Shown here: positions 10,022 through 32,930 of the stretch, one piece after another | Numbering within the stretch: position 1 is the first letter of the stretch | Layout of the letters: every line of letters starts with the position of its first letter | Virus record (IMG/VR): IMGVR_UViG_3300045988_125874 | From: a virus | Direction: 5' to 3' (one strand) | Length of the DNA stretch: 64,000 nucleotides | Notes under the pieces: model-generated | Databases searched by the model: none | Told to the model about the DNA's origin: nothing | What the model saw: only the letters and a program-made list of their open reading frames with translations | Made by a program: the position numbers and the translations under genes

Positions 10022-10052
10022 TTTGTTTGCATTGATGTATTAAATATATTTG
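10022..10052 (+). promoter_or_regulatory. Bacteroides-type promoter (TTTG ... TATATTTG) for the plus-strand moron
   Basis: TATATTTG at 10045-10052 and TTTG motifs at 10022-10029, about 28 nt upstream of the ATG at 10080. Confidence 0.5.
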
Positions 10053-10079
10053 CACATATACAACAATATAAATAGAGTA

Positions 10080-11204
10080 ATGGATTTTAAAGACAAAATC
10101 ATGCAGCTATCTGACAATATAAAGAAACAGAAAGATAGGATAGCTACAGAGGAAGCGACAAAAAATGCTTTCATTATGCCGATGATAGCTGCTTTAGACT
10201 ACGATGTTTTTAACCCTTTTGAGGTTGTGCCTGAAATGGATTGCGACTTAGTAAAGAAGAAAGGGGAGAAGATAGATTATGCTATAATGAAGGATGAAAA
10301 TCCGATTCTTCTTATTGAGTGCAAACATTGTAAACAAGATTTAAACTTGCATGATACTCAATTACAAAAGTATTTTGTCGCTTCTAACGCACGTTTTGGA
10401 GTGCTTACTAATGGTATAGAATATCGTTTTTATACTGATCTGGAAAAGGTAAACATTATGGATGAGAAACCTTTTCTTGTTGTGAATATGCTGGAGCTTT
10501 CGGACGCAGATATAGAACAGTTGAAGAAGTTTCACAAATCTTATTACAATGAAAACGATATTTTAAGTACTGCGAACAAACTTAAATACACGACAGAAAT
10601 AAAGACAATCTTGAATAGTGAATTTGTTTCACCGTCATCAGATTTTGTGAAATTCTTTGCTAAACAGGTATACACAACAGGGCAAATAACCCAGAAAGTT
10701 GTTGAGATGTTCACGCCACTTGTGAAGAAATCAATGTCTAGTGTTGTCAATGACATAATATCTGACAGGCTTAATACAGCTATGAAGAACGATGAACAGG
10801 CTGATGATGAAGTTTTCGAAGAGGAAAGTTTGCCAGATTCCCCCCGACAAGATATAGGCGATAAACTCCCAGAAGGAGTTGTGCACATGGACAAGGACTC
10901 CGGTATTATAACTACACAGGAAGAATTGGACGCCTACAATATTGTGAGGAGTATCTTAAGAAAAAGTATAGATGCCGCACGTATAACTTATAAAGACTAT
11001 AAAACATATTTCGTTGTTAATCTCGATAGCAGCGAATGGTTCTGGATATGCCGCATTTCCATTGGTGCAAGAAAGAAACGAATTGGGATACCAGTAGACA
11101 GGTACAAAAGCTGCGACTGGATTCAAATTGATAGCATAGATGACATATTCAAATATGCGGATAGACTTGAAGAATCACTTAAAATGGCAATAGAAAAGTT
11201 GTGA
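10080..11204 (+). CDS. HsdR N-terminal-like (PD-(D/E)xK) restriction-endonuclease-fold protein, stand-alone
   Basis: N-terminus TEEATKNAFIMPMIAALDYDVFNPFEVVPE...KIDYAIMKDENPILLIECK...QLQKYF...FGVLTNGIEYRFYTD matches the HSDR_N_2 pattern. ATG at 10080 is preferred over the track's TTG at 10050. Confidence 0.7.
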   Translation: MDFKDKIMQLSDNIKKQKDRIATEEATKNAFIMPMIAALDYDVFNPFEVVPEMDCDLVKKKGEKIDYAIMKDENPILLIECKHCKQDLNLHDTQLQKYFVASNARFGVLTNGIEYRFYTDLEKVNIMDEKPFLVVNMLELSDADIEQLKKFHKSYYNENDILSTANKLKYTTEIKTILNSEFVSPSSDFVKFFAKQVYTTGQITQKVVEMFTPLVKKSMSSVVNDIISDRLNTAMKNDEQADDEVFEEESLPDSPRQDIGDKLPEGVVHMDKDSGIITTQEELDAYNIVRSILRKSIDAARITYKDYKTYFVVNLDSSEWFWICRISIGARKKRIGIPVDRYKSCDWIQIDSIDDIFKYADRLEESLKMAIEKL

Positions 11205-14976: not shown

Positions 14977-16314
14977 TTACGATGCTTTATGAGATTCAAC
15001 CGCCTTTTTCAATGCTTCTTCGTCTGCGTCACTTAATCTGTTGACTGCTGCGATTAGTTTATCATCGGAAACGGTGGAAGTAAGGTTCTTGCCTGCAATC
15101 TTGTTATATTCCGTCACAAACTCCGGCTTTTTGTAAGTTGCTCCCCAAATTGTAATCTTAACATCAGAAGTATCTTTCTCTTCTTCTGTTGTGTCTACTG
15201 TTTGGGCTTCCAGTATATCCAAAGAATAGATTTGATCTACGTTTTCGATAACCGGCAAGCAGATAGCCTGTCCGTTTGTAAATTCCTGCAATGGGTCTGT
15301 TTTAGAGTAGCGGCTAATCAACTTATATTCGTCAATAGTAGTATATTCCACTCCATTAACGGGATTAGTTGCTTCAGCCAAAGTTCCCCATACAAAAGAA
15401 CCTACATTATCAGCGGAAGGGAGGAATATAAGTTTGTTTGCATTCCACGGCTTATAAGAAACCCTTTTCCCATTCTTCTCATAGGTAACAGAACGGTCAA
15501 CTTTCAAGAACGAAATGCCACCATATTGATCCGAAAACGCTTCATCAAATAAAGTAGATGTAGGAACCGGAAGTTTAGTATCATTATCAAAGGTTTGACC
15601 ACGATAATTTGCGGCTAGTTCTTTAGCCCATTGAGATTGACGCATTTTGTTATATGTAGATAAAGCCAGCATAATAACTGAAATACTGTTACCGTCATCG
15701 TTAGCTTTACTTATAACTCTTTCAATATCATCTCCTGTAACTTCACCGGTAGTAACAACCCCAAAGCTATGTTCTGGTAAATAACCATAATCAAAACGGA
15801 GACCTATACCAGTATTTTTATCATCGTCACCCTCAACAATGATGATACCATCGGATAGTCCTGTAAGGAAATTTGCTTCATTTCTCTCATCAATACCAAT
15901 AGAGCAAGCTGTTCCATCGTCCAACATACGAGTGATTATGCGGTTAAGAACAGATTTCTTAGCTGCATCCGTGCTGGCGTTGGATAAATGAGCTCTCATA
16001 ATGTTGATAGCATTAATTTGAGTCTCTCTTAGAATCTTTTTAATTCCGATCTTAGGCAATTCTCCGTTTGACCGTGCGATAGAATCTCGCTTTTTAGGTG
16101 AAAGCGGAGAGTCCATAGCCACCATATCAGCAGCGACATGCGTAGTATTGGCAGATGTGCCTTCCCATTTCTGATCGGGGGAGTACACTTTAGTAAGCAT
16201 CGTTTTGTGAAGATAGGTCAATGTCTTGTTTGTATCATTGATCTTTTCTTTCACATACAGGCTTAATTTAGGCCATATTCTTCTTACAAATTCAATAAAC
16301 AATGATTCATTCAT
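14977..16314 (-). CDS. Major capsid protein
   Basis: 445 aa, downstream of the scaffold gene and upstream of the connectors. Confidence 0.7.
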   Translation of the reverse strand: MNESLFIEFVRRIWPKLSLYVKEKINDTNKTLTYLHKTMLTKVYSPDQKWEGTSANTTHVAADMVAMDSPLSPKKRDSIARSNGELPKIGIKKILRETQINAINIMRAHLSNASTDAAKKSVLNRIITRMLDDGTACSIGIDERNEANFLTGLSDGIIIVEGDDDKNTGIGLRFDYGYLPEHSFGVVTTGEVTGDDIERVISKANDDGNSISVIMLALSTYNKMRQSQWAKELAANYRGQTFDNDTKLPVPTSTLFDEAFSDQYGGISFLKVDRSVTYEKNGKRVSYKPWNANKLIFLPSADNVGSFVWGTLAEATNPVNGVEYTTIDEYKLISRYSKTDPLQEFTNGQAICLPVIENVDQIYSLDILEAQTVDTTEEEKDTSDVKITIWGATYKKPEFVTEYNKIAGKNLTSTVSDDKLIAAVNRLSDADEEALKKAVESHKAS

Positions 16315-16327
16315 CTTTCACCTCCTT

Positions 16328-16729
16328 TTAATCGTGTAAAAAAACGAGTTGTGGCAATGCCGTTTTTAATGCAGCTTTGATGCTGTCAACGGAATAAGGA
16401 CTTGCCACATCATTAACTTCACCAGCATACATAATGCCTACAAATGGTTTGTCGGCAGGTTTTGAACAAACAACTACGCCAACATATTCATGATTGGATG
16501 GTAATGAATCGTAAGCTGTACCTGCAGAATTAACAGGCATCGGCTTATAAGTATCGTTCTCTGTATCGCGGATAACGATGTGCCCGGCTTTGATTACAGA
16601 CTGCTTAAATCCAGTCATGTCTAACGTCCGGCCATTCATAATTCCGCCCAAATAGTTACGAATAACAATCGAATCCATTCCGGTTAGGATTGTTTCTTGT
16701 TCGTTGACTAAATCAGCTTTTGCGCCCAT
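16328..16729 (-). CDS. Capsid-associated protein (possible decoration/auxiliary head protein)
   Basis: 133 aa ORF between the scaffold and capsid genes. Confidence 0.4.
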   Translation of the reverse strand: MGAKADLVNEQETILTGMDSIVIRNYLGGIMNGRTLDMTGFKQSVIKAGHIVIRDTENDTYKPMPVNSAGTAYDSLPSNHEYVGVVVCSKPADKPFVGIMYAGEVNDVASPYSVDSIKAALKTALPQLVFLHD

Positions 16730-16746
16730 TTTTAATTTGTTTTTGA

Positions 16747-17454
16747 TTAAAGGCCTTTAGCTATTGCTATGACCTCTTCGTCAGTTAATACTTCATTTTT
16801 TTCTTGTTTCTTACTTCCTGCACCTGGAGGATTCCCCAAACTAGATAGTCCTGCGTCGGCACGTTCTTGGTTGTAAGATTTCAAATCTTCCTCAACTTCG
16901 GAATAGAATTCTTCAAACTCTTCATCATTTTCAAACTTCATTTTATTGAAGGATTTCAATGTGCGAGTTCCGAATGTACCAGCATCTTTTAAAAGGGATT
17001 CAAGTTTTTCTCTACGTGTAGTGGTTACTTTTTCACCTTTTAATGCTGCAATTTCATCATTCAGTATTTGTACTGTCTGAACCAAACCTTTAGCCCATTC
17101 AGGGGCATCATCATTCTTTCCTTTGTTTTGGGGATTTTTTTTGTTTGAACCCGGCTGGCGATTAGTGGAATTTGATGACTCATCGTCATCGTCGTCATCG
17201 GTTTCATCGTCGTCATTCTTTTTACGGTTTTCTTCGATTACTCGATTTGCAAAAGACTGGCTGACTTGTAGGTAGGGGAGAACCGCATCAATAGCTGTAT
17301 CAATTTCTGCGTTTACGTCCTCATCGGAGGCATCGTCTGTGGAAGTTAGATTGTCGGCAATCTTGGCAGCGACACTCATCAATTCCTTTTTATTGAACCC
17401 GAACGCCTTCACTTTCGGTTTCAATCTCAACAATACTTGTTGTTTTCTGTCCAT
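16747..17454 (-). CDS. Scaffolding protein
   Basis: Acidic low-complexity tract (ETDDDDDDESS), predicted helical, position upstream of the capsid gene. Confidence 0.7.
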   Translation of the reverse strand: MDRKQQVLLRLKPKVKAFGFNKKELMSVAAKIADNLTSTDDASDEDVNAEIDTAIDAVLPYLQVSQSFANRVIEENRKKNDDDETDDDDDDESSNSTNRQPGSNKKNPQNKGKNDDAPEWAKGLVQTVQILNDEIAALKGEKVTTTRREKLESLLKDAGTFGTRTLKSFNKMKFENDEEFEEFYSEVEEDLKSYNQERADAGLSSLGNPPGAGSKKQEKNEVLTDEEVIAIAKGL

Positions 17455-17601
17455 TGTACAATGTTTTGGTTACTAAAATAGTCTGCGAAGTACGTATACC
17501 AGCAGACTATTCGCTTAGAACTTTACCAAACAATAGAGCAATGAGTTTTTACGACAAGTTCTGTGGCGTACGTCTTCATACGCATCTGATACAAAAGTAG
17601 T

Positions 17602-17628
17602 AAAAGTGGCGTAAACTCAATCACGTTT
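17602..17628 (-). promoter_or_regulatory. Copy 1 of the 27-bp dyad motif AAAAGTGGCGTAAAYTCAATCACTTTT
   Basis: aaaagtggcgtaaactcaatcacgttt lies in the intergenic region upstream of the scaffold/capsid operon. It is one of four near-identical copies. Confidence 0.6.
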
Positions 17629-17690
17629 AGTGTTAAAGTATATAAAAAGTAAATGTTTGGATTTGCCTGAATGAGAGGTGTTTAATTAGG

Positions 17691-18122
17691 CTATTCCTTT
17701 AGGTATCTATATGCTTTTAGGTATTTGTTTAGTCTGTAAATATCTTTCTCTGCAAGTTCGTTCAAACGTGTTATATCCATGTTGTCTTCCAAGTCATGCA
17801 ATTTAACTTGTCTTCCTATAGGGTTAAGCTTAGAACGTTTTATAAAATCTTCGTAACTTTCTCCTTTATTACGAGTAACTGAAATAATAGCATCAACAAT
17901 ATATTGTGGGAATCCTCCCATTAGTAAAAAATCAGCGGTAACTTCAGTATCTTCTATCGTATCATGCAGCAAAGCAACAATCCTTTCGTTATCTGTAGAA
18001 CATTTATTTGCGACGCGGATAGGATGAAGTATATAAGGCATTCCTGCTTTGTCAACTTGATAAATATGCGCATCTGTTGCTATATGAAGCGCTTTCTCTA
18101 ATAAAGTACTAATATCTGTCAT
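17691..18122 (-). CDS. HD-domain hydrolase, RelA/SpoT-hydrolase-like (small alarmone hydrolase-like)
   Basis: Motif YILHPIRVANKCSTDNERIVALLHDTIEDTEV matches the HD (p)ppGpp-hydrolase signature (H...HD...D). ATG at 18122 is preferred over the TTG at 18152. Confidence 0.75.
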   Translation of the reverse strand: MTDISTLLEKALHIATDAHIYQVDKAGMPYILHPIRVANKCSTDNERIVALLHDTIEDTEVTADFLLMGGFPQYIVDAIISVTRNKGESYEDFIKRSKLNPIGRQVKLHDLEDNMDITRLNELAEKDIYRLNKYLKAYRYLKE

Positions 18123-18336
18123 ATTCTGATTTTGAAATTTCTTTTCCGCCAAGAATTATATTACAAACTGTTTTATTGGATTGTGGAATTTCTATCTCGT
18201 TACGCCCACGATGTTTTATATACGATTTTGTTTGACCGTTATCGAGATGTAAACGGATAACTGCTTCCTCAAAATCGTCAAGTAAATAAACCGTTTCACC
18301 TGACTGTAATTTATTATATAATTCCTTTTGGTTCAT
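18109..18336 (-). CDS. Small hypothetical protein (75 aa) between the MuF-RelA/SpoT fusion and the HD hydrolase
   Basis: ORF track. Its position is compatible with an immunity or adaptor protein. Confidence 0.55.
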   Translation of the reverse strand: MNQKELYNKLQSGETVYLLDDFEEAVIRLHLDNGQTKSYIKHRGRNEIEIPQSNKTVCNIILGGKEISKSEYDRY

Positions 18337-18360
18337 TTTTATATGTAAAGATAGTGATTT

Positions 18361-19977
18361 TTATTGGAAATGACTATAATATTCAATTGATTTTTCAGCT
18401 ATTTTTTGTGCCTTTTTATCAGCTTTGTCTAATACTCGCCATTCTTCATAATATTTATGTCCTAATCCTCCTTCCATACCTGTTTGCTTCTGTATTTCTT
18501 TCCAACGTTTTTCTCCAAGAATTCTTTTTGCGTCTTCCGGCTTTTCTTTGGCATAAATCATACGTTCTGTATTAACTTGAATTTCGGCAATTAATCCGTT
18601 AGATGTTTGGATATTGACTATATTGCCACTATATCCCATAAAGGATTCCGGTTTTTGCCTTTTCAGTCGTACAAACGAATCGCTTTCAGATAGTTCGTTT
18701 AATACTTGATCTATTTGTGATCTGGGGACTATAATTGTCGTCCTAACTGCGTCTTTTATATCGTATGGAGTTATACCTTCCGTTGTAACCTTTCTTGTTA
18801 TTGATGAGATGCTTTTGTAATTGATTGGCGTTACAAATCCTTTATTCTTTTTAGCTATGGATTCCGCTAAACTTTGTACCTCATTCCCGACTAAAGAAGC
18901 ACGATTAACAAGCTCTTTAGCTGAATTCTCGGTATTTATATTTTGAACAATTGATTTGTTATCTCTCAAAAAATAAGGTAGGGTGTTTCTTTTCTGGGCT
19001 TTCTCGATCTTTTGACGGTTTTCGAGTACCCATTTTTTGAATTCGTCAGGAACATCCTTTACTTCATTTATACTTTCTGTGGAAACATCGCTTCGTCCAT
19101 CCCATTCCCAGAATTCTTCTTCTGTTTTGAGGATAGGAACTTTATAACATAAATCATTCGGATGCCATCCTGTCCAGGTGAAGTCTTTAGGATATTTACC
19201 GGCAAGTGTGTCACAAATGTCTCCATGTGGCATACGACTATGATGAGAAGAACTTAGTTTTATTTCATATCCGACTACGAAATCCATTTGTTTCCATCTT
19301 TCGTTTTCGGCTGTTCTATAAGCCATGTTTATTTCTGAACGGGCTAGACGTATGGAACGATACTCACAATCTTGTATATGTTCAGCACTGCCATATCTGT
19401 CTTTGTAATCTTTTTGCAGTAATGGGAAATCAAGAAGATACTTACTTATTTGCTTACTCAACGTAACAGCACTGGTTCCTTTTTGAATAGCGCATGAGAT
19501 CGCAGCCTCCAGTTCTTCTTTGTAGATCATAGATTGCTGCCAGAGTTTTGCAGATATATTGAATCCTTTATCTTTTCGGTTCTGGAATGCTTTCAAAGCA
19601 TCTGAATTTGTTTGATATAGTATTTTATATTTTTCTTTGTCAACTTGGGCGTTATATGCTTTTAGTACTTTGTTTGCTATTAAATCCTGCGCTTCATTAC
19701 TATTCTTCCATTCTTCGGTAGTACCGCGATAGATAGTTGCATTTATATCCTCTACAAAGTGCTTCTGTATATCGTCAATTTGCTTTTTAGTTTGAGGGTA
19801 GTCAGACCATTTAAACGGCTTATCGCTATCAGGGGAATATTTAGTACGTGAAACGGCTTTGGCAGCTTCCAAATTCAGGGTATCGTATATTTGCTCAACG
19901 AGGGCTACATATCTGTTTAATCTCCCGTTGAGTTCTTGGTACTTCTTTTTCTGATTTGGAATCTTGGGTTTTGCCAT
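18361..19977 (-). CDS. MuF/SPP1 gp7-like head morphogenesis protein fused to a C-terminal RelA/SpoT-like nucleotidyltransferase domain
   Basis: MuF core: SSSHHSRMPHGDICDTLAGKYPKDFTWTGWHPNDLCY. C-terminal part: YKSISSITRKV...DIKDAVRTTIIV...FMGYSGNIVNIQTSNGLIAEIQVNTERMIYAKE resembles the RelA_SpoT synthetase motifs (KS..SI..K, D..R, GY...H, EIQ.RT). Confidence 0.75.
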   Translation of the reverse strand: MAKPKIPNQKKKYQELNGRLNRYVALVEQIYDTLNLEAAKAVSRTKYSPDSDKPFKWSDYPQTKKQIDDIQKHFVEDINATIYRGTTEEWKNSNEAQDLIANKVLKAYNAQVDKEKYKILYQTNSDALKAFQNRKDKGFNISAKLWQQSMIYKEELEAAISCAIQKGTSAVTLSKQISKYLLDFPLLQKDYKDRYGSAEHIQDCEYRSIRLARSEINMAYRTAENERWKQMDFVVGYEIKLSSSHHSRMPHGDICDTLAGKYPKDFTWTGWHPNDLCYKVPILKTEEEFWEWDGRSDVSTESINEVKDVPDEFKKWVLENRQKIEKAQKRNTLPYFLRDNKSIVQNINTENSAKELVNRASLVGNEVQSLAESIAKKNKGFVTPINYKSISSITRKVTTEGITPYDIKDAVRTTIIVPRSQIDQVLNELSESDSFVRLKRQKPESFMGYSGNIVNIQTSNGLIAEIQVNTERMIYAKEKPEDAKRILGEKRWKEIQKQTGMEGGLGHKYYEEWRVLDKADKKAQKIAEKSIEYYSHFQ

Positions 19978-20105
19978 TATTTCATTTGCTTTTTCTTATC
20001 CTTGTCGTCGGTAGGGTAGAGGTGGTGTTTTACTATAATCTTACCACAGATAGGACAATCCTGTACTATGTATTCCACTGTGACTACTCTAGTATGCTTT
20101 TTCAT
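19977..20105 (-). CDS. Small ORF (42 aa, MKKHTRVVTVEYIVQDCPICGKIIVKHH...)
   Basis: Manual translation (below the track cutoff). Its TAATG stop/start overlap with the MuF gene suggests translational coupling. Confidence 0.4.
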   Translation of the reverse strand: MKKHTRVVTVEYIVQDCPICGKIIVKHHLYPTDDKDKKKQMK

Positions 20106-20107
20106 AT

Positions 20108-20470
20108 TTATTCCTCCGAAATTCTATCAGGTGCTGGCATCTCCAATAATCGGATAGCTTTAATTGTTTCCTTTCCCTCCAATATCGCTTTACATAAACG
20201 ATGGTAGCCATCAGCAATTTGACCTACTTCGTCAAGGATAATAGGATATTCAAGAGAACATTGATTCACCCGTTTGCATTGAAAAATGAAACTGTGAAGC
20301 TGATTACATTCAAATGGTTCAGCTGTAAGGTCTATATTCCATAGCGGCATATCAAGCACTGGGTATTCTTTTGCCTTAGCAAAATCGTAGAGTGTTTGAG
20401 CTTTCCAGATCTTGTCTCCACGATGATATTCACTTTCGCTAAAAGTTATGTTATCTATAGGAACCTGCAT
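20108..20470 (-). CDS. ParB-like nuclease domain protein (120 aa)
   Basis: Motif PIILDEVGQIADGYHRLCKAILEG (DGxHR, ParB/Srx fold). Confidence 0.6.
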   Translation of the reverse strand: MQVPIDNITFSESEYHRGDKIWKAQTLYDFAKAKEYPVLDMPLWNIDLTAEPFECNQLHSFIFQCKRVNQCSLEYPIILDEVGQIADGYHRLCKAILEGKETIKAIRLLEMPAPDRISEE

Positions 20471-20471
20471 A

Positions 20472-20819
20472 TTATTCTTTTTTTATATATACTTTGATTT
20501 CACCGGTAACATGGAGTTCATCACCAACTTTTTCAACGGAGTATTCTATTAGCCCCCTCTGGTTGATTGAGCTTACAATTGATTGGAGAACTTCATCCTT
20601 TACTTCTTTGATGAACATTTCATCTGATTTTCGATTAGACCAACCTTCATCAAGTTTCTTCTTTTTTCGGTAATCCTTGATTTCTTTTTTAGTTCGGGCA
20701 AGGCAGATACCAAGCTTCTTTGCTTCGTAGTTATCAACTCGTTCAATACTACTCAATCTTTCTTGTGGATTGATTTTTTCTGCTAATCTAATAAGCCAGT
20801 TTGATATTTTTGTCTTCAT
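20472..20819 (-). CDS. Hypothetical protein (115 aa)
   Basis: ORF track; tightly packed in the accessory island. Confidence 0.55.
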   Translation of the reverse strand: MKTKISNWLIRLAEKINPQERLSSIERVDNYEAKKLGICLARTKKEIKDYRKKKKLDEGWSNRKSDEMFIKEVKDEVLQSIVSSINQRGLIEYSVEKVGDELHVTGEIKVYIKKE

Positions 20820-20855
20820 GATTTTAAGTTTTAAGCCAGCAGCGTAAACATCTGC

Positions 20856-21395
20856 TTACGCTGCTTTAACCTTTTTTACAGCTTGGCAGATAGGATATTG
20901 TACAATTTCCCAGTCTTCTGCAAACACATCACTGATGGATGGTACCCACGAATCAGCACGTCCCGTATTTTCGTTATAGATAAGGCATTGGCTTGTATAG
21001 TCAATAAAACCTTTTCCTTTCAGAATAAGGTCTTTTGCTGATTGAGGAAGCGATTGCATCTTGGGAATGGTATCGCTTTCAATATGTGCAGGCACTTGCT
21101 TGAATACCGTCAGGCCTTTGCCGTTCCAGCCGTTTCTACGGATAGCCCCACCTTGCTTCAAAACTTCGATAGCATCACCGAAACACATAGGAGTTTCTTT
21201 CTTGACTTCTCGATATGATTCTTCAAACAATTCTTTGGGGGACCAACTTTCATAGCCATATTCAGCACGAGTGTGATATCCAAGCCTGCAAGATTCATGC
21301 TCTCCTATTTCACTTTTTACCAAACCTTTACGGTAAGCTTCGCCTAATGTCATAGGTTCTGCTTCAATCTGTTTTGTGCTAATGTACTTTTTCAT
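20856..21395 (-). CDS. DUF2829-domain protein (Tad2-like fold candidate) with an extra N-terminal domain
   Basis: C-terminal half FGDAIEVLKQGGAIRRNGWNGKG...SWVPSISDVFAEDWEIV matches the DUF2829 signature (..GW.gK....W..s..Dl.AeDWei.). Confidence 0.65.
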   Translation of the reverse strand: MKKYISTKQIEAEPMTLGEAYRKGLVKSEIGEHESCRLGYHTRAEYGYESWSPKELFEESYREVKKETPMCFGDAIEVLKQGGAIRRNGWNGKGLTVFKQVPAHIESDTIPKMQSLPQSAKDLILKGKGFIDYTSQCLIYNENTGRADSWVPSISDVFAEDWEIVQYPICQAVKKVKAA

Positions 21396-21416
21396 GATAG
21401 TGTATTTATTTACAAA

Positions 21417-21707
21417 TCAAACATCTTCCTCTTCATAAGCCATCTTTGCACTCATGACACCAACCGAACTTAGCATCCTGATAGAAAGCCCCTTTTGTAC
21501 GTCAAGCTCAAAAATCATATTGTCATTGAATTGAGCGGCAGGATATTGATACAATAGCGCATAATCCATTCCTTCCAACTTTGCGTATATACTAAGTGTG
21601 CCACTCTTCTCTCTGTCTATCTGTATTACACATTTCCCAACAGAAGTAAACTCACAGGAATAGCCCTGTTTTTCTTTACTAAATTTTAGTACATCAGTTT
21701 TTGCCAT
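21417..21707 (-). CDS. Hypothetical protein (96 aa)
   Basis: ORF track; directly downstream of the portal gene. Confidence 0.55.
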   Translation of the reverse strand: MAKTDVLKFSKEKQGYSCEFTSVGKCVIQIDREKSGTLSIYAKLEGMDYALLYQYPAAQFNDNMIFELDVQKGLSIRMLSSVGVMSAKMAYEEEDV

Positions 21708-21727: not shown

Positions 21728-23128
21728 TTATTCCGGTTCTTCGAATATATTGCTTATCCTGCTTCTGGAAGCATCTGCATCTTCTTTTTGGATTTGGGCA
21801 AGAGTTTCTTGTGGATCAGTAGAGATACCTAAGTTCTTGATGGCTTCTAATTGGCTGACAACAGCTTTTCCACCACTTGCTGTAACCCATTTTTCTATTT
21901 CTGACTTTTCATCATTTTGGATAAATGGAGTTATGATGTGCTCAATCTCAACATTATCTACTTCATTTTTCCAAGAAACATTCATCATTTTCAGGAAAGC
22001 TTTGATTACGCTACATTCACGTTCAAATGCTTCTATCCATGCACCACTTTCATCTCCAACCTTTAAATGAGCGTCAGTAAGTAAAGTCTGCCTTGCATCA
22101 AATCCGATATTGCCAAGAGACTTCATGTTTTCGAAGGAAATATCCGGCATTTGTGATTGTGACCAGAACAACTTAACAAGGGTATCGACATGATATTTTA
22201 ACGCCTCGATAGATTGTGCCCATGAAACATAGGACACGTCCCCGTTTTGTTCTACTCGGTAAACTCTACGGCTTTCTCCTTTATCTTCTCCTCCTTTTAT
22301 GCTACCTGCTATTTTTAGGATAGGAGCGGAGTTATATGCTATGACATCGCTATTGCGTGAAAGGGTATATTCGATTTCTTTTCTGATATAGGAAAGACCG
22401 TGATAAATGGGAACAGGACGATAAACGTATACTCCGGGTATTTTCAGAATAACGACCGGCTCTGATTTAACTAATTCCCAACCGTTTCCCTGTTGTTTCC
22501 ATTTATAATGAATGTTTGCCGTGTATGTCTCGAAATACGTAACTTCTTCATTTTTGACCTTTTTTGTGTATTCAAAAGACATTGCGATCATATCGCCAAG
22601 CTCATCAAGTAGAGGGTATAAGCTAACACCGTCCATTGGTGAGTAGGTTTTGCATTTTAGCTTATATTTACTTTTAAAGCCGTATAGAGTGTTGGGATTC
22701 TCAACTGTGTACCAAATGGTGAACACTTCGCATGAAGCAAAGTAAGCATTGCCTCGCTTAATATTCTCACTGTCAATACGGGCATACTTATATATCGCTT
22801 CAATCGCTTTCGCAATACTTTGGCGGGTTTCATTGTCTTCTATATTGTGATATACACGTTTAACCGGGATAGCGAACATGAATTCAGTCATTCGCTTGGT
22901 GAGGAGTTTTTCAAGTCCGATGTAGATACGGGAAGCTTTTTCTGTATCTCCATTAGATCGGATCTTATCTTTACGGGTAACTGTGTCAGATACTATATCA
23001 TGTTCTGTTGGTTCGTAGTCTTTGAGAAGTTTATCCCATGAGGGGACTGTTACAGACTTTTCTTTCAAATCGTTGATTATGTTATCAACGGGCCGCGTAC
23101 TGTCTAAGATAGAGGTGATTTCGTCCAT
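21728..23128 (-). CDS. Portal protein
   Basis: 466 aa; position between the TerL block and MuF. Confidence 0.75.
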   Translation of the reverse strand: MDEITSILDSTRPVDNIINDLKEKSVTVPSWDKLLKDYEPTEHDIVSDTVTRKDKIRSNGDTEKASRIYIGLEKLLTKRMTEFMFAIPVKRVYHNIEDNETRQSIAKAIEAIYKYARIDSENIKRGNAYFASCEVFTIWYTVENPNTLYGFKSKYKLKCKTYSPMDGVSLYPLLDELGDMIAMSFEYTKKVKNEEVTYFETYTANIHYKWKQQGNGWELVKSEPVVILKIPGVYVYRPVPIYHGLSYIRKEIEYTLSRNSDVIAYNSAPILKIAGSIKGGEDKGESRRVYRVEQNGDVSYVSWAQSIEALKYHVDTLVKLFWSQSQMPDISFENMKSLGNIGFDARQTLLTDAHLKVGDESGAWIEAFERECSVIKAFLKMMNVSWKNEVDNVEIEHIITPFIQNDEKSEIEKWVTASGGKAVVSQLEAIKNLGISTDPQETLAQIQKEDADASRSRISNIFEEPE

Positions 23129-26532: not shown

Positions 26533-26894
26533 TCTTCATCGTCTGGCAATTCTTGCATTAATTTCTCAAATGGATTAATATTCAAATCTTGCTCTACTTT
26601 TTCAACGTAACCGCGATGCTTCATTTTAGTCTTACTTAACCAAATAAGCATGGTGTTATCTTGTTCCGTCAAAGCTTTAGCAAACATTGTCGTTTCTAGC
26701 TTATCATAGAAACTTTCTTCTACTTCTTTCCATTTTTCGGCAAAATCTGGATCATTCGATTTCCATTTATAAGCAATGGAGCGTGAGATTTCTACAGCTT
26801 CACAAGCTGCGGTAACATTCAGCATCCTTGCTTCCAATGCTTTTAAAAACTTAGCTTTCTTTTGCCTTGTATTAAGCCTGTACTTCTGTGCCAT
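26529..26894 (-). CDS. Terminase small subunit (HTH)
   Basis: KAKFLKALEARMLNVTAACEAVEISRSIAYKWKSNDPDFAEKW is a typical TerS HTH. ATG at 26894 is preferred. Confidence 0.7.
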   Translation of the reverse strand: MAQKYRLNTRQKKAKFLKALEARMLNVTAACEAVEISRSIAYKWKSNDPDFAEKWKEVEESFYDKLETTMFAKALTEQDNTMLIWLSKTKMKHRGYVEKVEQDLNINPFEKLMQELPDDEE

Positions 26895-27582
26895 CTTTAC
26901 TTCCCTCCAATACATTATTCACAATTTCCAACATTTTGCATATACTCAAAGCCTGTGCTTTGATTTTGTATTTCGCCTGAACTTTTGCGGATACTTCATT
27001 TAATCGATACATTGTTTCCATGTCCAATAAAGTAAGGTTGCCAAGTTCTTTTTCTGAATAGCAATCCAATGTTTCCATTAATTTGTCAAATGAGACTTTC
27101 TGTGTATCTACAAACATAAGAGTTACTGGAACAATTTCATTATTCGGCATTTCAACTGTATAGTTGATGTCTTTAACGCTTTCTAGTACTTCATTACTGA
27201 TATGCGCATACTCTTTCAGTGCGACATCCGTTATTTCATCAAGAAGCTGTTTTATTATCTCTTGATCATCTTGACCGTTTATCGAATTTGCGCTTAACTG
27301 AATAGCCCGTATTTCATCATTGGAAATATCTTTTTCATTAATATACATAATATGACATGATGTCAAACCAGCCATATTTGCCGCTTGTATTCTATGGTTC
27401 CCAGAAACAACAGTATAAGTTCCGTTGTCATGTTCAACACAAAATGGGACGCTGCTTAACTGGCCATCTCTACGAATATTATTCACGAGTTGGTTAAACA
27501 TGGATTGCTCCATAAATCTTGCATTCTTCTTTATCAACTTGATAGAAGAAAGCGGAACTTCTCTTATTTGAAACTGCTTCAT
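26872..27582 (-). CDS. ParB N-terminal domain protein
   Basis: VPLSSIKL...RRDGQLSSVPFCVEHDNGTYTVVSGNHRIQAA (ParBc motif GxxR / GNHR). ATG at 27582 removes the 128-nt overlap with the HNH gene. Confidence 0.7.
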   Translation of the reverse strand: MKQFQIREVPLSSIKLIKKNARFMEQSMFNQLVNNIRRDGQLSSVPFCVEHDNGTYTVVSGNHRIQAANMAGLTSCHIMYINEKDISNDEIRAIQLSANSINGQDDQEIIKQLLDEITDVALKEYAHISNEVLESVKDINYTVEMPNNEIVPVTLMFVDTQKVSFDKLMETLDCYSEKELGNLTLLDMETMYRLNEVSAKVQAKYKIKAQALSICKMLEIVNNVLEGSKDGTEVQA

Positions 27583-27586
27583 ATTT

Positions 27587-28330
27587 TTATTCTTTAAATT
27601 TCCAAATAAATCCTCCTGCTGTATGGTATCTTGGTCTTTTCCTACAGCACATACCAATATTGGCACTACATACTCCTGTTTTTCTTGATGCGTCCATAAT
27701 AGAATTATATTCATTCAATAAATCACCATTAGAATTATATTGAAGAACCCTACGTACTTTTAGCTCTATCTTTATCTTCTTGGGAAATTCTTCTGATATT
27801 TTGCGACACCAATAGAAACTACCTGCATGGTACTGCTTTCCATTTATACATTGATTTATAGAAGTGTTTAGTACTCCTGTTATTCTTTCGGCTTCTGCAC
27901 CAGAGTTATACTCTTTTAAGAAATTACCATCCAAATCATATTGTAAAACCGGAATAGAACAAATTTCTTTTGTCTTTATATTTCTATTTCCATATTGGCA
28001 ATTATACTTATGTGTACAAAATTCCAAATTATCGACTGTATTATTATTTTTACATTCATCCTTATGATTGACTTCTGTAAGATTTAAAGGATTATCTAAA
28101 AAAGTTTCAGCTATTACTTTATGTACATAAAAACGCTTGACTACATTATTCTTGCATAAACACAGGAATAGGTATCCTTTTTTATTATCACGAGGTAGCA
28201 ATATTTTACCGCTATAGAATCTTCTTCCACCTTTGTATGGGACAACCCTATCTAAGGAGCGTATTCTACCTAAAGACGATGCTTGATATAAACCTTCGTA
28301 CCCCTTAATATTTTTCCAAATTTCATCCAT
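27587..28330 (-). CDS. HNH homing endonuclease (NUMOD4 + HNH + two IENR1-like repeats)
   Basis: IWKNIKGYEGLYQASSLGRIRS (NUMOD4); VNHKDECKNNNTVDNLEFCTHKYN (HNH); two repeats with the AGSFYW / AGGFIW endings. Confidence 0.8.
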   Translation of the reverse strand: MDEIWKNIKGYEGLYQASSLGRIRSLDRVVPYKGGRRFYSGKILLPRDNKKGYLFLCLCKNNVVKRFYVHKVIAETFLDNPLNLTEVNHKDECKNNNTVDNLEFCTHKYNCQYGNRNIKTKEICSIPVLQYDLDGNFLKEYNSGAEAERITGVLNTSINQCINGKQYHAGSFYWCRKISEEFPKKIKIELKVRRVLQYNSNGDLLNEYNSIMDASRKTGVCSANIGMCCRKRPRYHTAGGFIWKFKE

Positions 28331-28334
28331 ACAT

Positions 28335-30422
28335 TTATTCCTTTCTCGGCTCATCACCGTATTTTTCTACAAATGCTTTTAAAATATCATCTAAGTTGCC
28401 ACGAATACCTGCATCTTGTATGTAATGGAGTTTACCAACGCAACGTTCATGTAATTTGAATACACCACGATATTTCATACTTACAGGTTTATCGGTGAAC
28501 ACGGAAGTAGCAATAACACCACATTGATGTTTATATCTTATATCCAGTTCTGATTTAAATTCTGATGAAAGAACGCCCATTATTAGCAATCGGCTCAACT
28601 TAGGCAGAGGGTGGTCTATGACAAAATCCGATTTCATCCAAACTGCATCCATGCCGTATTTGCTGACCTTCAGGAAGTCAAACATACAAGCTCCGAACAC
28701 GTAATCATCCAAGAACCACAAATAACAGAACGGAGCTGATCCGAGTATGATGCCTTTCTTCAAGTAAATCATGCGCAGATAATCAATTTCTGCCATAGAA
28801 GCACGAACAAACCGGAGTTTGCTATTATTTGTAAGTACGTAATCGTCTGGCAACCGTTTATATTTTAGAGGGATGATAGTCCGCTTGTTAAAACTGCTGT
28901 CTCCACTTTCTACCACATTAGACCAAATATATGTGCGTTGGTCTTTGAATACCTCTCTTCTGCCCATAAATCCATGCTGCGAGAGAGCCATGTAATTAAC
29001 TTGTTCTTCATCTATTTCTGCATATTTCGTTTTAGTTCGTTCTTGAGATCCAAAATCATCCAATAAGAAACGCTGTAATGCGTTGCTTGTGGCTTTCATA
29101 CCGGAATGAAATTCATTCTGATAGATCAATATGTCATTCTCTTTGCAGTTAAGAATTGCATCTGATATATCAGCACAATAAAATACTTCAATAGACTTAC
29201 TTTTAAGGCTGTCTACGAGCTTTTGGTAACGTTCCGTATACTTCTTATGGTAATGCTCCAATTTTGCCATAAAATCGTCATAAAGCGACTTATGGTAAAT
29301 ATCTTGTGAGTTCTTATGCTTCTTGATGGCATTGAACAGATGGATAGTGGCAATAATTTCAGCCGGACTTTCAGACTTGATATTCAGAAACTCATATTCA
29401 TCATTAAAACGCAGTTCTTTTATCTCTCCCTTGATTGCCTTATACATCATGTAGATAAAATACTCCTTTGTATACACCTTAATCTCACGGTTGGTAAGTA
29501 TTTGCTCTATATCCATATAGTATGAGTTTACCACATGAGCAATATCAAATTTGGCCGCTTCTTTCTTGATGAAGGAAAGCATACGATTAGTTTTCTTAAA
29601 CATGGAGCCTACTATCGTAACATTGTCCGAGTGTTCTGCTGCCCAAAGTAACGGTTTATGTCTTTGGGGAACCTTGGAATAGTCTATATGGAATGTCTCA
29701 AGACATTTGTCAATAGTGGTGAGTTGCTTATACTCTTCTATGTCTTCATGTAGGTAGGCATATTCTACAAATGAATACATGAATTTGATTGTTTCCAGCA
29801 CCTTGTCGAAGTCCCATGAACTATTGAAGATACGGAATTCTGCTGTTCCTATCTTTTCAATAGAACATAAGTTGAGCCAGTACCGGATATGTCCTCTATC
29901 TGACCCATTACTAAAAACTTTCAGTAAATTCTCAATATTATCTGCTTCAAGAACTCGTTTTACAACATCCCAAGGTGGACTGGGTACGAGATATTTTGTT
30001 TCCCACCACTCGGCAATGTCAAATATTCGTTTGATTGGATAAGCGGTGTAGTAGGAGAGGGCAAACAAACGTTTGATAACATTCAAGTCCATATCTTTGA
30101 TGTATAGATGTGCATCAAAACCTTCATTCCACATGAGATAACTTCCTGCATCTCTCATGGTCTGAATAAAATTCTTCAACTCCTGCAAATCTTCTATACA
30201 ATAATGGTATGGGCGTGTGTTTATTTCCCCGCCAAATTGACCGTGATGCGTAACTGCCGATCCATCCGAGTTATTCATCATGGTTAGCTTGTTATCCGTC
30301 CACTTGTAACCCGATGGAAGAGGAATGTGCTCTTTATCACCATCAGCGAACTCCAGTTCCATGCCAAATGTGCGATTGGCTATATAGTCAATCCACGGTT
30401 TATCTATATTCGTGTTCTGCAT
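28335..30422 (-). CDS. Amidoligase (Amidoligase_2 / GS-like) N-terminal domain protein with a ~450-aa uncharacterised C-terminal region
   Basis: FGMELEFADG...DGSAVTHHGQFGGEINTRPY...GFDAHLYI...IGTAEFRIFNSSWDFDKVLETIKFMYSFVEYA follows the putative-amidoligase pattern (G.E.EF, DGS...GE..., H.H, GT.EFR). Confidence 0.65.
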   Translation of the reverse strand: MQNTNIDKPWIDYIANRTFGMELEFADGDKEHIPLPSGYKWTDNKLTMMNNSDGSAVTHHGQFGGEINTRPYHYCIEDLQELKNFIQTMRDAGSYLMWNEGFDAHLYIKDMDLNVIKRLFALSYYTAYPIKRIFDIAEWWETKYLVPSPPWDVVKRVLEADNIENLLKVFSNGSDRGHIRYWLNLCSIEKIGTAEFRIFNSSWDFDKVLETIKFMYSFVEYAYLHEDIEEYKQLTTIDKCLETFHIDYSKVPQRHKPLLWAAEHSDNVTIVGSMFKKTNRMLSFIKKEAAKFDIAHVVNSYYMDIEQILTNREIKVYTKEYFIYMMYKAIKGEIKELRFNDEYEFLNIKSESPAEIIATIHLFNAIKKHKNSQDIYHKSLYDDFMAKLEHYHKKYTERYQKLVDSLKSKSIEVFYCADISDAILNCKENDILIYQNEFHSGMKATSNALQRFLLDDFGSQERTKTKYAEIDEEQVNYMALSQHGFMGRREVFKDQRTYIWSNVVESGDSSFNKRTIIPLKYKRLPDDYVLTNNSKLRFVRASMAEIDYLRMIYLKKGIILGSAPFCYLWFLDDYVFGACMFDFLKVSKYGMDAVWMKSDFVIDHPLPKLSRLLIMGVLSSEFKSELDIRYKHQCGVIATSVFTDKPVSMKYRGVFKLHERCVGKLHYIQDAGIRGNLDDILKAFVEKYGDEPRKE

Positions 30423-32785: not shown

Positions 32786-32861
32786 ACTAAATGCAAGGAA
32801 TCGAACCTTGTCGCTTACTTTACACAACCTCAATCAACGAGCCGAGTTTAACGGCATTCGA
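32786..32861 (-). tRNA. tRNA-like gene, normal length (~76 nt), imperfect stems, anticodon loop compatible with UGA (Ser)
   Basis: T-arm CAAGG-TTCGATT-CCTTG. D-like hairpin GCCG-TTAAACT-CGGC. Loop (A/G)TTGA(G/T). One acceptor mismatch, and the D hairpin abuts the acceptor strand. Confidence 0.35.
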
Positions 32862-32930
32862 GCGGAAACAGGGAATCGAACCCCACTCTTTGGCTGGAAT
32901 GCCAACGCTCTACCGATGAGCTATTTCCGC
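32861..32930 (-). tRNA. tRNA-like gene, 70 nt, near-canonical cloverleaf but with a 6-nt anticodon loop ATTCCA (UCC-Gly or CCA-Trp)
   Basis: GCGGAAA-TA-GCTC-ATCGGTA-GAGC-G-TTGGC-ATTCCA-GCCAA-AGAG-TGGGG-TTCGATT-CCCTG-TTTCCGC-T. Confidence 0.55.

Follow-up and report, generated by a model that had tools for sequence, protein, structure and literature searches.

What does a phage gain from a head protein that carries a RelA/SpoT-like domain at its C-terminus, and what are the two small genes behind it for? This question is raised by three neighbouring genes in a 64,000-nucleotide stretch of viral DNA (IMG/VR record IMGVR_UViG_3300045988_125874; hereafter the window). A preliminary description had read them as a MuF head protein fused to a toxin of the RelA/SpoT-homologue (RSH) type, a small ORF and an HD alarmone hydrolase. 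We assign a probability of roughly 0.93 to the reading that this Bacteroides phage carries at the locus an Apk2-Tis1-Aph1 module, which is a temperate-phage polymorphic toxin system of the MuF family. None of the evidence presented below contradicts this identification.

The three open reading frames were found where they had been described, all on the minus strand. The MuF-toxin ORF (18361..19977) encodes 538 aa from an ATG start, and its stop codon occupies 18361-18363. The second gene (18109..18336; 75 aa, ATG start) begins 24 nt past this stop codon. The third, which encodes the HD protein, can be read either as 153 aa from a TTG (17691..18152) or as 143 aa from an ATG (17691..18122). The ATG at 18122 is in frame within the longer ORF and gives the 143-aa form, whose N-terminus coincides with residue 1 of PDB 7SMG; this form shares 14 nt with the 3' end of the 75-aa gene.

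The phage is a siphovirus-like phage of Bacteroides, and the trio sits between its portal and scaffold genes. The SPP1 gp6-type portal gene (21728..23128, minus strand; PF05133 SPP1_portal, E=8.9e-34; phrog_64) lies upstream in the same minus-strand gene run, and the MuF-toxin gene, a member of the head gene cluster, follows four genes further downstream. Directly downstream of the trio is a scaffold-like gene (16747..17454, minus strand; phrog_5824 and phrog_8764), which is followed by the major head protein gene (14977..16314, minus strand; phrog_29, E=3.3e-33); a 133-aa minus-strand gene, within 14977..17454, is listed between these two. Since a scan for sigma-70 promoters and terminators gave counts no higher than in shuffled sequence, and is not suited to Bacteroides promoters, we make no claim about transcription units.

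The N-terminal domain (residues 1 to ~345 of the 538-aa protein; 18943..19977, minus strand) was analyzed with several profile collections. It matched phrog_7625 'head morphogenesis' (E=6e-89), phrog_1657 (E=9e-26) and phrog_115 'minor head protein' (E=3.5e-17). SPP1 gp7, a capsid-internal and portal-bound protein, matches two of these PHROGs (1.5e-66 for phrog_115 and 1.7e-5 for phrog_7625). In an AlphaFold2 model of the whole protein, taken from the second of two runs, the pLDDT was above 85 over residues 1-440, and the fold matches of this model in BFVD were minor capsid, MuF-like and head morphogenesis proteins (E from 1.5e-9 to 1e-3). The Pfam model Phage_Mu_F (PF04233) matched neither this domain nor any of 67 relatives, and TIGR01641 gave E=0.12, below threshold. 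The MuF assignment therefore rests on the PHROG profiles, the fold matches and the gene position. When the profile of the N-terminal family was compared by hhalign with the single sequences of SPP1 gp7 and Mu gpF, the matches were not significant (E=0.15 and 0.075, respectively); the non-significant alignment to gp7 still paired its expected GK.P...NC.C motif, and the domain itself carries a ...GDICD...WHPNDLCY... motif. Taken together, these results place the domain in the MuF/SPP1 gp7-type head-morphogenesis group that is characteristic of the Apk2 family.

MuF-family polymorphic toxins were reportedly described by Jamet et al. in 2017. The present N-terminal domain was found in 2908 representative clusters with variable C-termini, and total protein lengths ranged from 335 to 1388 aa among the best 150. 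Of 68 proteins sampled, the C-termini were Gln_amidase in 14, ADPrib_exo_Tox (ADP-ribosyltransferase) in 5, CdiA_C in 4, and Zeta_toxin, PIN_8 and RelA_SpoT in one each. The polymorphic-toxin architecture that had been proposed is thus borne out: a constant N-terminal domain is joined to swappable C-terminal toxins, and small immunity ORFs follow.

The identity of the C-terminal domain is indicated by its similarity to Tas1, a crystallised (p)ppApp synthetase toxin. Residues 357-535 match residues 253-431 of Tas1 (PDB 6OX6_A) with E=5.8e-27, and the alignment extends the toxin domain over residues 357-538 (18364..18909, minus strand). The preliminary description had located this region correctly and had underestimated its size, which is about 182 aa and not ~150 aa. 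The motifs it quoted are all present, at residues 387-397 (YKSISSITRKV), 409-417 (DAVRTTIIV), 448-457 (GYSGNIVNIQ) and 465-470 (EIQVNT). They contain the catalytic set, namely the Lys of syn1 (K388), the Mg-binding Asp of syn2 (D409) and the Glu of syn4 (E465). These three residues align with the same residues of Tas1 and are invariant across 12 diverse homologues (37-62% identity). The Pfam RelA_SpoT model matched only weakly (E=9e-4, 19.9 bits, cutoff 27).

The predicted structure was also examined. A first AlphaFold run started from a shallow alignment, whose sequences shared 89-99% identity with the 538-aa protein; its pLDDT was 44.8 and it was discarded. In the second run, based on 68 diverse N-terminal homologues, the pLDDT was 82, with the C-terminal half of the toxin domain below 50. 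Foldseek returned Tas1 as the top and only significant PDB match (prob 1.00); the rmsd of this match is poor because of the low model confidence in the C-terminal half of the domain, and the identification of the toxin therefore relies on sequence evidence. On these grounds the domain belongs to the Apk2-type, Tas1-like RSH synthetases, that is, the adenosine 3'-pyrophosphokinases or (p)ppApp synthetases. Its product and its toxicity can be judged from the B. caccae toxin domain, which is 96.7% identical and produces (p)ppApp in E. coli (PMC10083569). The phage domain would accordingly be expected, by analogy, to make (p)ppApp from ATP and to be toxic to bacteria.

It had also been suggested that the activity is directed at tRNA. 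According to this interpretation, the toxin would be a tRNA 3'-CCA pyrophosphokinase like the CapRel, FaRel2 and PhRel2 toxSAS, would block translation, possibly in connection with an odd tRNA of the phage, and the HD protein would strip the pyrophosphate from the tRNA. Both groups of enzymes are indeed members of the RelA/SpoT-homologue superfamily, CapRel (7ZTB_A) is among the Foldseek matches (prob 0.85, E=0.34), and a tRNA encoded in the window has an unusual anticodon loop of 6 nt. This is, however, a single tRNA and not the several odd tRNA-like genes of the preliminary description; it lies ~13 kb away in another module and has no link to the trio. The profile of the toxin-domain family found Tas1 with E=2.6e-42 among solved structures and no CapRel or any other RSH structure at E<=1, so that the domain is not close to the tRNA-pyrophosphorylating toxSAS. 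The (p)ppApp made in cells by the B. caccae domain, the adenine-nucleotide-specific signature of the partner hydrolase and the relation of the small partner to the immunity protein of a (p)ppApp synthetase all argue in the same direction. We consider a tRNA-directed toxin highly improbable and retain the Apk2 identification.

The relation of the 75-aa ORF to Tis1 was established mainly with a family profile, since a phmmer search of PDB sequences with this ORF alone gave no match. The profile of 25 positional homologues, the 75-aa ORF included, matched Tis1 (PDB 6OX6_B) with E=1.2e-28. With Pfam PF24154 (Tis1_ImmP), 18 of the 25 positional homologues gave a match; the ORF itself scored 24.9 bits (E=2.2e-5), short of the gathering score of 27. 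It is encoded directly 3' of the (p)ppApp synthetase toxin and shares 89.3% identity with the ORF that takes the place of BcTis1 (BACCAC_01147) in the B. caccae locus described below. By sequence and position, the 75-aa ORF is a member of the Tis1/IapK immunity family, which provides structural immunity.

The HD protein matched PDB 7SMG, '(p)ppApp hydrolase' (Aph1), with E=9.3e-74 and 81.1% identity over 143 ungapped residues, and phrog_990, metal-dependent phosphohydrolase, with E=4.5e-49. In the 143-aa numbering, the motifs of the preliminary description are found at residues 33-34 (HP) and 51-59 (LLHDTIEDT). The alignment to Aph1 showed that H33, H53-D54, E57, D58, H109-D110 and N114 are kept; the HD fold with its metal-binding H...HD...D residues (H33, H53-D54 and D110) is thus present. 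The signature defined for (p)ppApp hydrolases, D24, R96, D116, R119, K133 and Y134 (PMC10083569), is identical at all six positions in the ungapped alignment. Although 27 of the 143 positions differ from the tested Aph1 (19% diverged), none of these is a catalytic or signature position. The values for the three proteins (E=5.8e-27 for Tas1, 9.3e-74 for Aph1 and 2.2e-5 for Tis1_ImmP) exclude a chance resemblance.

The preliminary description had taken the HD protein for a (p)ppGpp-type hydrolase. This part of it is replaced by the complete (p)ppApp-specific signature and by the behaviour of Aph1, which does not hydrolyse ppGpp (PMC10083569). We therefore expect, from the 81% identical crystallised enzyme, that the phage protein would hydrolyse (p)ppApp and not (p)ppGpp. 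The same facts bear on the interpretation that the two enzymes are a (p)ppGpp synthetase and hydrolase which tune the stringent response of the host, with no role as toxin and immunity. NCBI and IMG do annotate the HD protein as 'GTP pyrophosphokinase' or '(p)ppGpp synthase/HD hydrolase', and there are weak Pfam RelA_SpoT and HD_4 matches and a partial TIGR00691 spoT_relA match. On the other hand, D24 and R119, whose mutation is needed for a gain of ppGpp activity, are both kept; Apk2 domains make only (p)ppApp, and changes in their syn motifs gave no (p)ppGpp synthetase. The presence of a Tis1-type blocking protein, moreover, indicates a toxin rather than a stringent-response role. It is thus very hard to reconcile a stringent-response function with the locus, and the Aph1-type assignment of the HD protein stands as that of an enzymatic immunity gene.

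The close relatives of the trio point to the same identification. In a reference locus of B. caccae, the HD gene is 100% identical to the crystallised Aph1 and the MuF protein is EDM22756.1. The reference and the module region are collinear, with 90-95% nucleotide identity. The protein identities to this tested Apk2-BcTis1-Aph1 module are 95.7% for the 538-aa protein, 89.3% for the 75-aa ORF and 81.1% for the HD protein, and by sequence the phage trio is its orthologue. The proposed arrangement of a small immunity gene followed by a protective HD alarmone hydrolase is therefore the published architecture of Apk2-Tis1-Aph1 (PMC10083569).

Across 47 genome loci, an ORF of 70-90 aa nearly always comes after the toxin ORF, and an Aph-like gene is also present in 13 of 48 loci when the reference is counted. 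The allele occurs commonly in genomes of gut Bacteroides and Phocaeicola and in metagenomes, and close relatives in nr already carry the label 'Tas1'. A megablast search of positions 17000-21000 of the window against the INPHARED phage collection gave no match; relatives are found in prophages and on metagenomic contigs and not among deposited phage genomes. Relatives of 877 aa were considered as alternative, Bxa-like toxins and rejected, since they are the same Apk2 protein interrupted by an intein.

On the basis of the tested orthologues, the following mechanism can be proposed. The toxin domain would transfer pyrophosphate from ATP to the 3'-OH of ATP, ADP or AMP, and the synthesis of (p)ppApp would drain the adenylate pool and lead to arrest or death of the cell. 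Both downstream genes in the late head gene cluster would protect the cell that builds the virions: the 75-aa Tis1-like protein probably binds the toxin and occludes its active site, and the 143-aa Aph1 hydrolase would cleave (p)ppApp back to ATP, ADP or AMP. As for delivery, the MuF domain may act like SPP1 gp7 and load a few toxin copies at the portal into the capsid; the toxin may then leave with the DNA into the next host. The terms 'head-packaged' and 'injected' in the preliminary description would follow from this analogy with gp7.

There is another possible interpretation of the role of the module, with its Apk2-Tis1-Aph1 identity unchanged. The toxin could be released on lysis or otherwise exported and, as with the MuF-fused Bxa, could serve colonisation by acting against competitor bacteria or the host epithelium. 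Bxa has the same N-terminal domain (phrog_16625, E=1.5e-67), targets epithelial cells and promotes colonisation of the gut, and the published papers explicitly leave the delivery route open. However, (p)ppApp synthesis requires cytoplasmic ATP in the target, and neither a signal nor a route for export is apparent. The position of the gene between portal and scaffold genes, the match of its N-terminal domain to virion minor capsid proteins and the location of gp7 within the SPP1 capsid also argue for a virion protein. Release is thus an unlikely role, although a far less remote one than a tRNA-directed or stringent-response function.

If the toxin is carried in the capsid and ejected with the DNA, a brief burst of (p)ppApp and the depletion of ATP might disable ATP-dependent defences or metabolism of the host at the start of infection. 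Aph1 and Tis1 of a resident prophage might then give superinfection immunity against related phages, and a Tad2-like gene, three genes upstream of the MuF gene, might turn this stretch of the head operon into a small cluster of counter-defence genes. We offer this scenario tentatively and regard it as rather doubtful.

For the phage trio itself, the Apk2-Tis1-Aph1 identification is based on homology, on conserved catalytic and specificity residues, on gene order and on orthology to tested proteins. Toxicity, the (p)ppApp product, additive protection and the specificity of Aph1 are drawn from experiments on orthologues (PMC10083569, PMC12226406, PMC11699363). Since the locus nearly duplicates a laboratory-tested gene trio of a Bacteroides prophage, the module is real but not new. 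Its discovery value is small: papers of 2023-2025 already describe the module and its chemistry, how both immunity proteins act, and the structure of Aph1. The phage could be used as a test case for the packaging and injection of MuF-fused toxins and for their benefit to phage or lysogen; as such it adds nothing beyond the characterised B. caccae prophage.

Several known systems can be compared with the trio, among them the toxSAS. FaRel with its antitoxin ATfaRel, a small alarmone hydrolase (SAH), resembles the present case in that an RSH-fold toxin is neutralised by such a hydrolase, and FaRel also makes (p)ppApp. The toxSAS systems (FaRel, CapRel, FaRel2 and PhRel2) are, however, stand-alone toxin-antitoxin modules with no fusion to a virion protein, and those that modify tRNA are similar to the phage toxin only at the level of the CapRel match given above. 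The T6SS pair Tas1 (Apk1)-Tis1 of Pseudomonas aeruginosa PA14 (PDB 6OX6) has a homologous toxin domain (about 34% identity) and a homologous Tis1. Its delivery domain is a PAAR domain (T6SS spike) instead of a MuF-like head protein, and it is without a hydrolase partner, unlike the phage trio. BcTis1 gives no protection against Tas1 (PMC10083569).

Bxa-Bsi-BAH of a Bacteroides stercoris prophage (PMC11699363) shares the homologous N-terminal domain and the same logic of one structural (binding) and one enzymatic immunity protein. Its chemistry is different: Bxa is a MuF-fused ADP-ribosyltransferase, reversed by an ADP-ribosylhydrolase. The systems reported in 2025 (PMC12226406) consist of the same trio of MuF-toxin, small binding immunity protein and hydrolase, in other phyla and with sequences distant from those of the phage. 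Their toxins produce only (p)ppApp; their hydrolases are interchangeable, whereas the binding immunity proteins mostly protect only against their own toxin.

The closest system is Apk2 (BcTas1, BACCAC_01148)-BcTis1 (BACCAC_01147)-Aph1 (BACCAC_01146) of a B. caccae prophage, for which Ahmad et al. (PNAS 2023; PMC10083569) provided the experimental characterisation. In that work, toxicity, the (p)ppApp product, additive protection by both immunity proteins and the specificity of Aph1 were shown and the Aph1 structure (PDB 7SMG) was determined; follow-up work has appeared (Alexei 2024; Paulet 2025). The two loci have the same three genes in the same order, with the same spacing and lengths (538, 75 and 143/153 aa), and the same flanks, namely the portal gene and genes of 96, 115 and 120 aa upstream and the scaffold and major capsid genes downstream. 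What sets them apart between the portal and MuF genes is a 524-bp indel, which holds the Tad2-like gene in the phage and is missing from the reference locus. The phage trio is, in this comparison, an allelic variant of the B. caccae module.

The module consists of three minus-strand genes: a 538-aa MuF-toxin ORF (18361..19977), a 75-aa ORF (18109..18336), which starts 24 nt past the stop codon of the former, and an HD-protein ORF (17691..18152), which is 153 aa long if started at a TTG. Started at the in-frame ATG at 18122, the HD protein has 143 aa, and this form aligns with residue 1 of its crystallised homologue. The ORF listing showed that the preliminary description had placed all three ORFs exactly, and every motif it quoted was found in the sequence. 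The plus strand across the module interval showed only short ORFs (41-86 aa). An SPP1-type portal gene (21728..23128, minus strand; PF05133, E=8.9e-34) is located upstream of the module, and profile searches placed genes for a scaffold-like protein, a 133-aa product and the major head protein downstream. The 236 nt from the end of the Aph1 gene to the scaffold gene (start at 17454) hold a perfect 10-bp inverted repeat (window ~17476..17510, minus strand; AATAGTCTGC...(15 nt)...GCAGACTATT), about 20 nt ahead of the scaffold ATG, which was not picked up by a simple terminator scan. A 120-aa ORF (20108..20470, minus strand; phrog_17560, unknown function) adjoins the MuF gene upstream and is kept in L001, the reference contig carrying the Bacteroides caccae prophage module. 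Its stretch ...QIADGYHRLCKAI... recalls the ParB/sulfiredoxin DGxHR motif, and no match to it was found in Pfam or NCBIfam.

The C-terminal domain of the 538-aa protein had been described as RelA/SpoT-like, and this was borne out by sequence, by family profile and by predicted fold, each of which pointed to Tas1. A sequence search with the whole 538-aa protein against all PDB chains gave a single match, Tas1 (6OX6_A, E=5.8e-27), a (p)ppApp synthetase that serves Pseudomonas aeruginosa as a type VI effector; residues 357-535 were aligned with Tas1 253-431. A profile of 11 diverse toxin-domain homologues (37-62% identity), collected among proteins related in the N-terminal domain, matched Tas1 at E=2.6e-42 and no other RelA/SpoT-homologue (RSH) structure at E<=1. 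The Pfam RelA_SpoT model matched the toxin domain weakly (E=9e-4, under its gathering score). The AlphaFold model of the 538-aa protein had a mean pLDDT of 82, with values below 50 over most of residues 442-538; with this region mostly of low confidence, Tas1 was the sole significant match among PDB folds (E=3.6e-4, prob 1.00). The catalytic residues, looked for by alignment, are present: K388, D409 and E465 are invariant among the homologues, and we take them, from what is known of RelSeq, to be the syn1 Lys, the syn2 Mg-binding Asp and the syn4 Glu of RSH synthetases, respectively. Some relatives outside the window carry two tandem Apk2-like domains (P0200: 401-569 and 599-776), and in others the Apk2 domain is followed by several hundred further residues, as in multi-effector 'polyvalent' head proteins (P0200, P0202, P0180, P0183, P0262 and P0281 for the two types).

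A tRNA-directed activity of the toxin, suggested earlier, found no support. The nearest relatives of the toxin make (p)ppApp, both immunity proteins are of (p)ppApp-system types, and the tRNA pyrophosphokinase CapRel appeared in the fold search only at E=0.34. The proposed link to odd tRNA-like genes is likewise unsupported: the window has a single such gene (32861..32930, minus strand), ~13 kb off in a different module. ARAGORN reports it as 'tRNA-???' with a two-base anticodon 'tc', and it scores 53 bits with the Rfam tRNA model. Its anticodon stem, TTGGC/GCCAA, encloses a loop of 6 nt (ATTCCA), one short of the usual 7. The gene may be functional, may decode unusually or may be a decayed tRNA-Gly(UCC).

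The 75-aa ORF matched Pfam Tis1_ImmP at E=2.2e-5 (24.9 bits, slightly below the gathering score of 27). In 47 loci with toxin-domain relatives, drawn from one-genome-per-species contigs, a 70-90-aa ORF directly follows the toxin gene in nearly all; with L001 added, an Aph-like gene comes next in order at 13 of the 48. A profile built from 25 such ORFs, the window's included, matched Tis1 (6OX6_B) at E=1.2e-28, and 18 of the 25 matched PF24154. The HD protein matched the '(p)ppApp hydrolase' 7SMG (crystallised Aph1) at E=9.3e-74, with 81.1% identity over 143 ungapped residues, and its HD metal site is kept. Ahmad et al. (PMC10083569) defined a (p)ppApp-specific Aph signature of six residues, D24, R96, D116, R119, K133 and Y134, and reported that mutation of D24 and R119 enables ppGpp hydrolysis by Aph1. 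All six are kept in the window's protein, and the (p)ppGpp substrate assigned to it earlier is not supported.

The N-terminal domain gave no match in Pfam, and TIGR01641 (SPP1 gp7 family) reached only E=0.12. It matched the PHROG 'head morphogenesis' or 'minor head protein' families phrog_7625 (6e-89), phrog_1657 (9e-26) and phrog_115 (3.5e-17); SPP1 gp7, used as a query, matched phrog_115 (1.5e-66) and phrog_7625 (1.7e-5). The well-modelled N-terminal part matched minor capsid, MuF-like minor capsid and head morphogenesis proteins in BFVD (E 1.5e-9 to 1e-3). On the basis of these PHROG families, the matches shared with SPP1 gp7 and the fold matches, we accept the domain as a divergent MuF/gp7-type domain, as in the published papers. 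It was found in 2908 clusters (50% identity), in the best 150 of which it always occupies residues 1 to ~345 of proteins of 335-1388 aa. The C-termini of 68 sampled members included glutamine deamidase (14), ADP-ribosyltransferase (5), CdiA_C (4), Zeta toxin, PIN and others. A constant N-terminus with varied C-terminal toxins is the defining architecture of a polymorphic-toxin family.

Relatives of 877 aa and longer (P0098-P0104, P0154, P0197 and P0250, outside the window) are the same MuF-Apk2 protein split by a ~339-aa intein, whose insertion point falls precisely in the conserved MuF motif, at WHPN|C (equivalent window site ~19150-19162). The intein begins with CYSNDSEVLT and has TPDH, two LAGLIDADG-like motifs (GYWLSDGS, AFVLCDGY) and ...NHIMYIRRNGKCFWGSN|C. 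The window allele is without it.

Other genes of the window were also noted. Between the portal and MuF genes, a 179-aa protein (20856..21395, minus strand) is Tad2-like (Thoeris anti-defence 2, PF11195; residues 70-165, E=3.5e-18). Since the gene lies in a 524-bp stretch (20899..21422) missing from the otherwise collinear L001, it looks like an inserted cassette. A 695-aa protein (28335..30422, minus strand) brings together Amidoligase_2, phage DAM-like domain 1 and a phage GNAT-like domain; multi-domain layouts like this one are associated with phage DNA modification. Next to it are encoded a ParB-like nuclease/methyltransferase-type protein (26872..27714) and an HNH endonuclease (27587..28357). 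A moron-like placement is seen for a 384-aa ORF (10050..11204) on the opposite (plus) strand: it separates the tape measure gene from the upstream tail genes, and it carries an HSDR_N domain (type I restriction enzyme R-protein, N-terminal).

The module is best explained by the published mechanism; orthology and residue conservation are observed here, and the biochemistry is that of the orthologues. By this analogy, the toxin domain would pyrophosphorylate adenine nucleotides, consuming ATP, the Tis1-like protein would occlude the toxin active site, and Aph1 would undo the toxin's product. From their location in the head gene cluster, all three genes are expected to be expressed during virion assembly, and the immunity genes would therefore protect the producing cell. 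By analogy with SPP1 gp7, we infer that the MuF domain would put the toxin inside the capsid, to be ejected with the DNA; this is treated as an open question in the published papers. The core of the preliminary description stands, but its hydrolase substrate and its tRNA link are wrong or unsupported, and so is its treatment of packaging, which rests on SPP1 gp7, as a settled matter.

The feature has been described before. The 538-aa protein shares 95.7% identity with P0049 of B. caccae (EDM22756.1 among its accessions), and near-identical proteins in nr already carry the name 'Tas1'. L001 carries P0049, and its HD gene, two genes downstream, matches crystallised Aph1 at 100% identity, which identifies L001 as the locus of Ahmad et al. 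(PNAS 2023, PMC10083569). Apart from two indels, the window and L001 are collinear at 90-95% DNA identity. Divergence climbs along the module (17691..19977), with identities of 96.7% for the toxin domain, 89.3% for the 75-aa ORF and 81.1% for the HD protein, so that the immunity genes, the 'universal' hydrolase most of all, are further diverged than the toxin. In that system the toxin domain inhibits Escherichia coli growth via (p)ppApp production, BcTis1 or Aph1 alone protects partially and both together fully, and Aph1 hydrolyses pApp, ppApp and pppApp and does not hydrolyse ppGpp (PMC10083569). Alexei et al. (2024) described the same N-terminal domain joined to other toxins throughout the Bacteroidales; one of these, in Phocaeicola vulgatus, is an alarmone synthetase next to an Aph1-like gene. 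Paulet et al. (2025, PMC12226406) extended the system to three other prophages, in which the hydrolases are interchangeable and the binding immunities are mostly specific to their own toxin.
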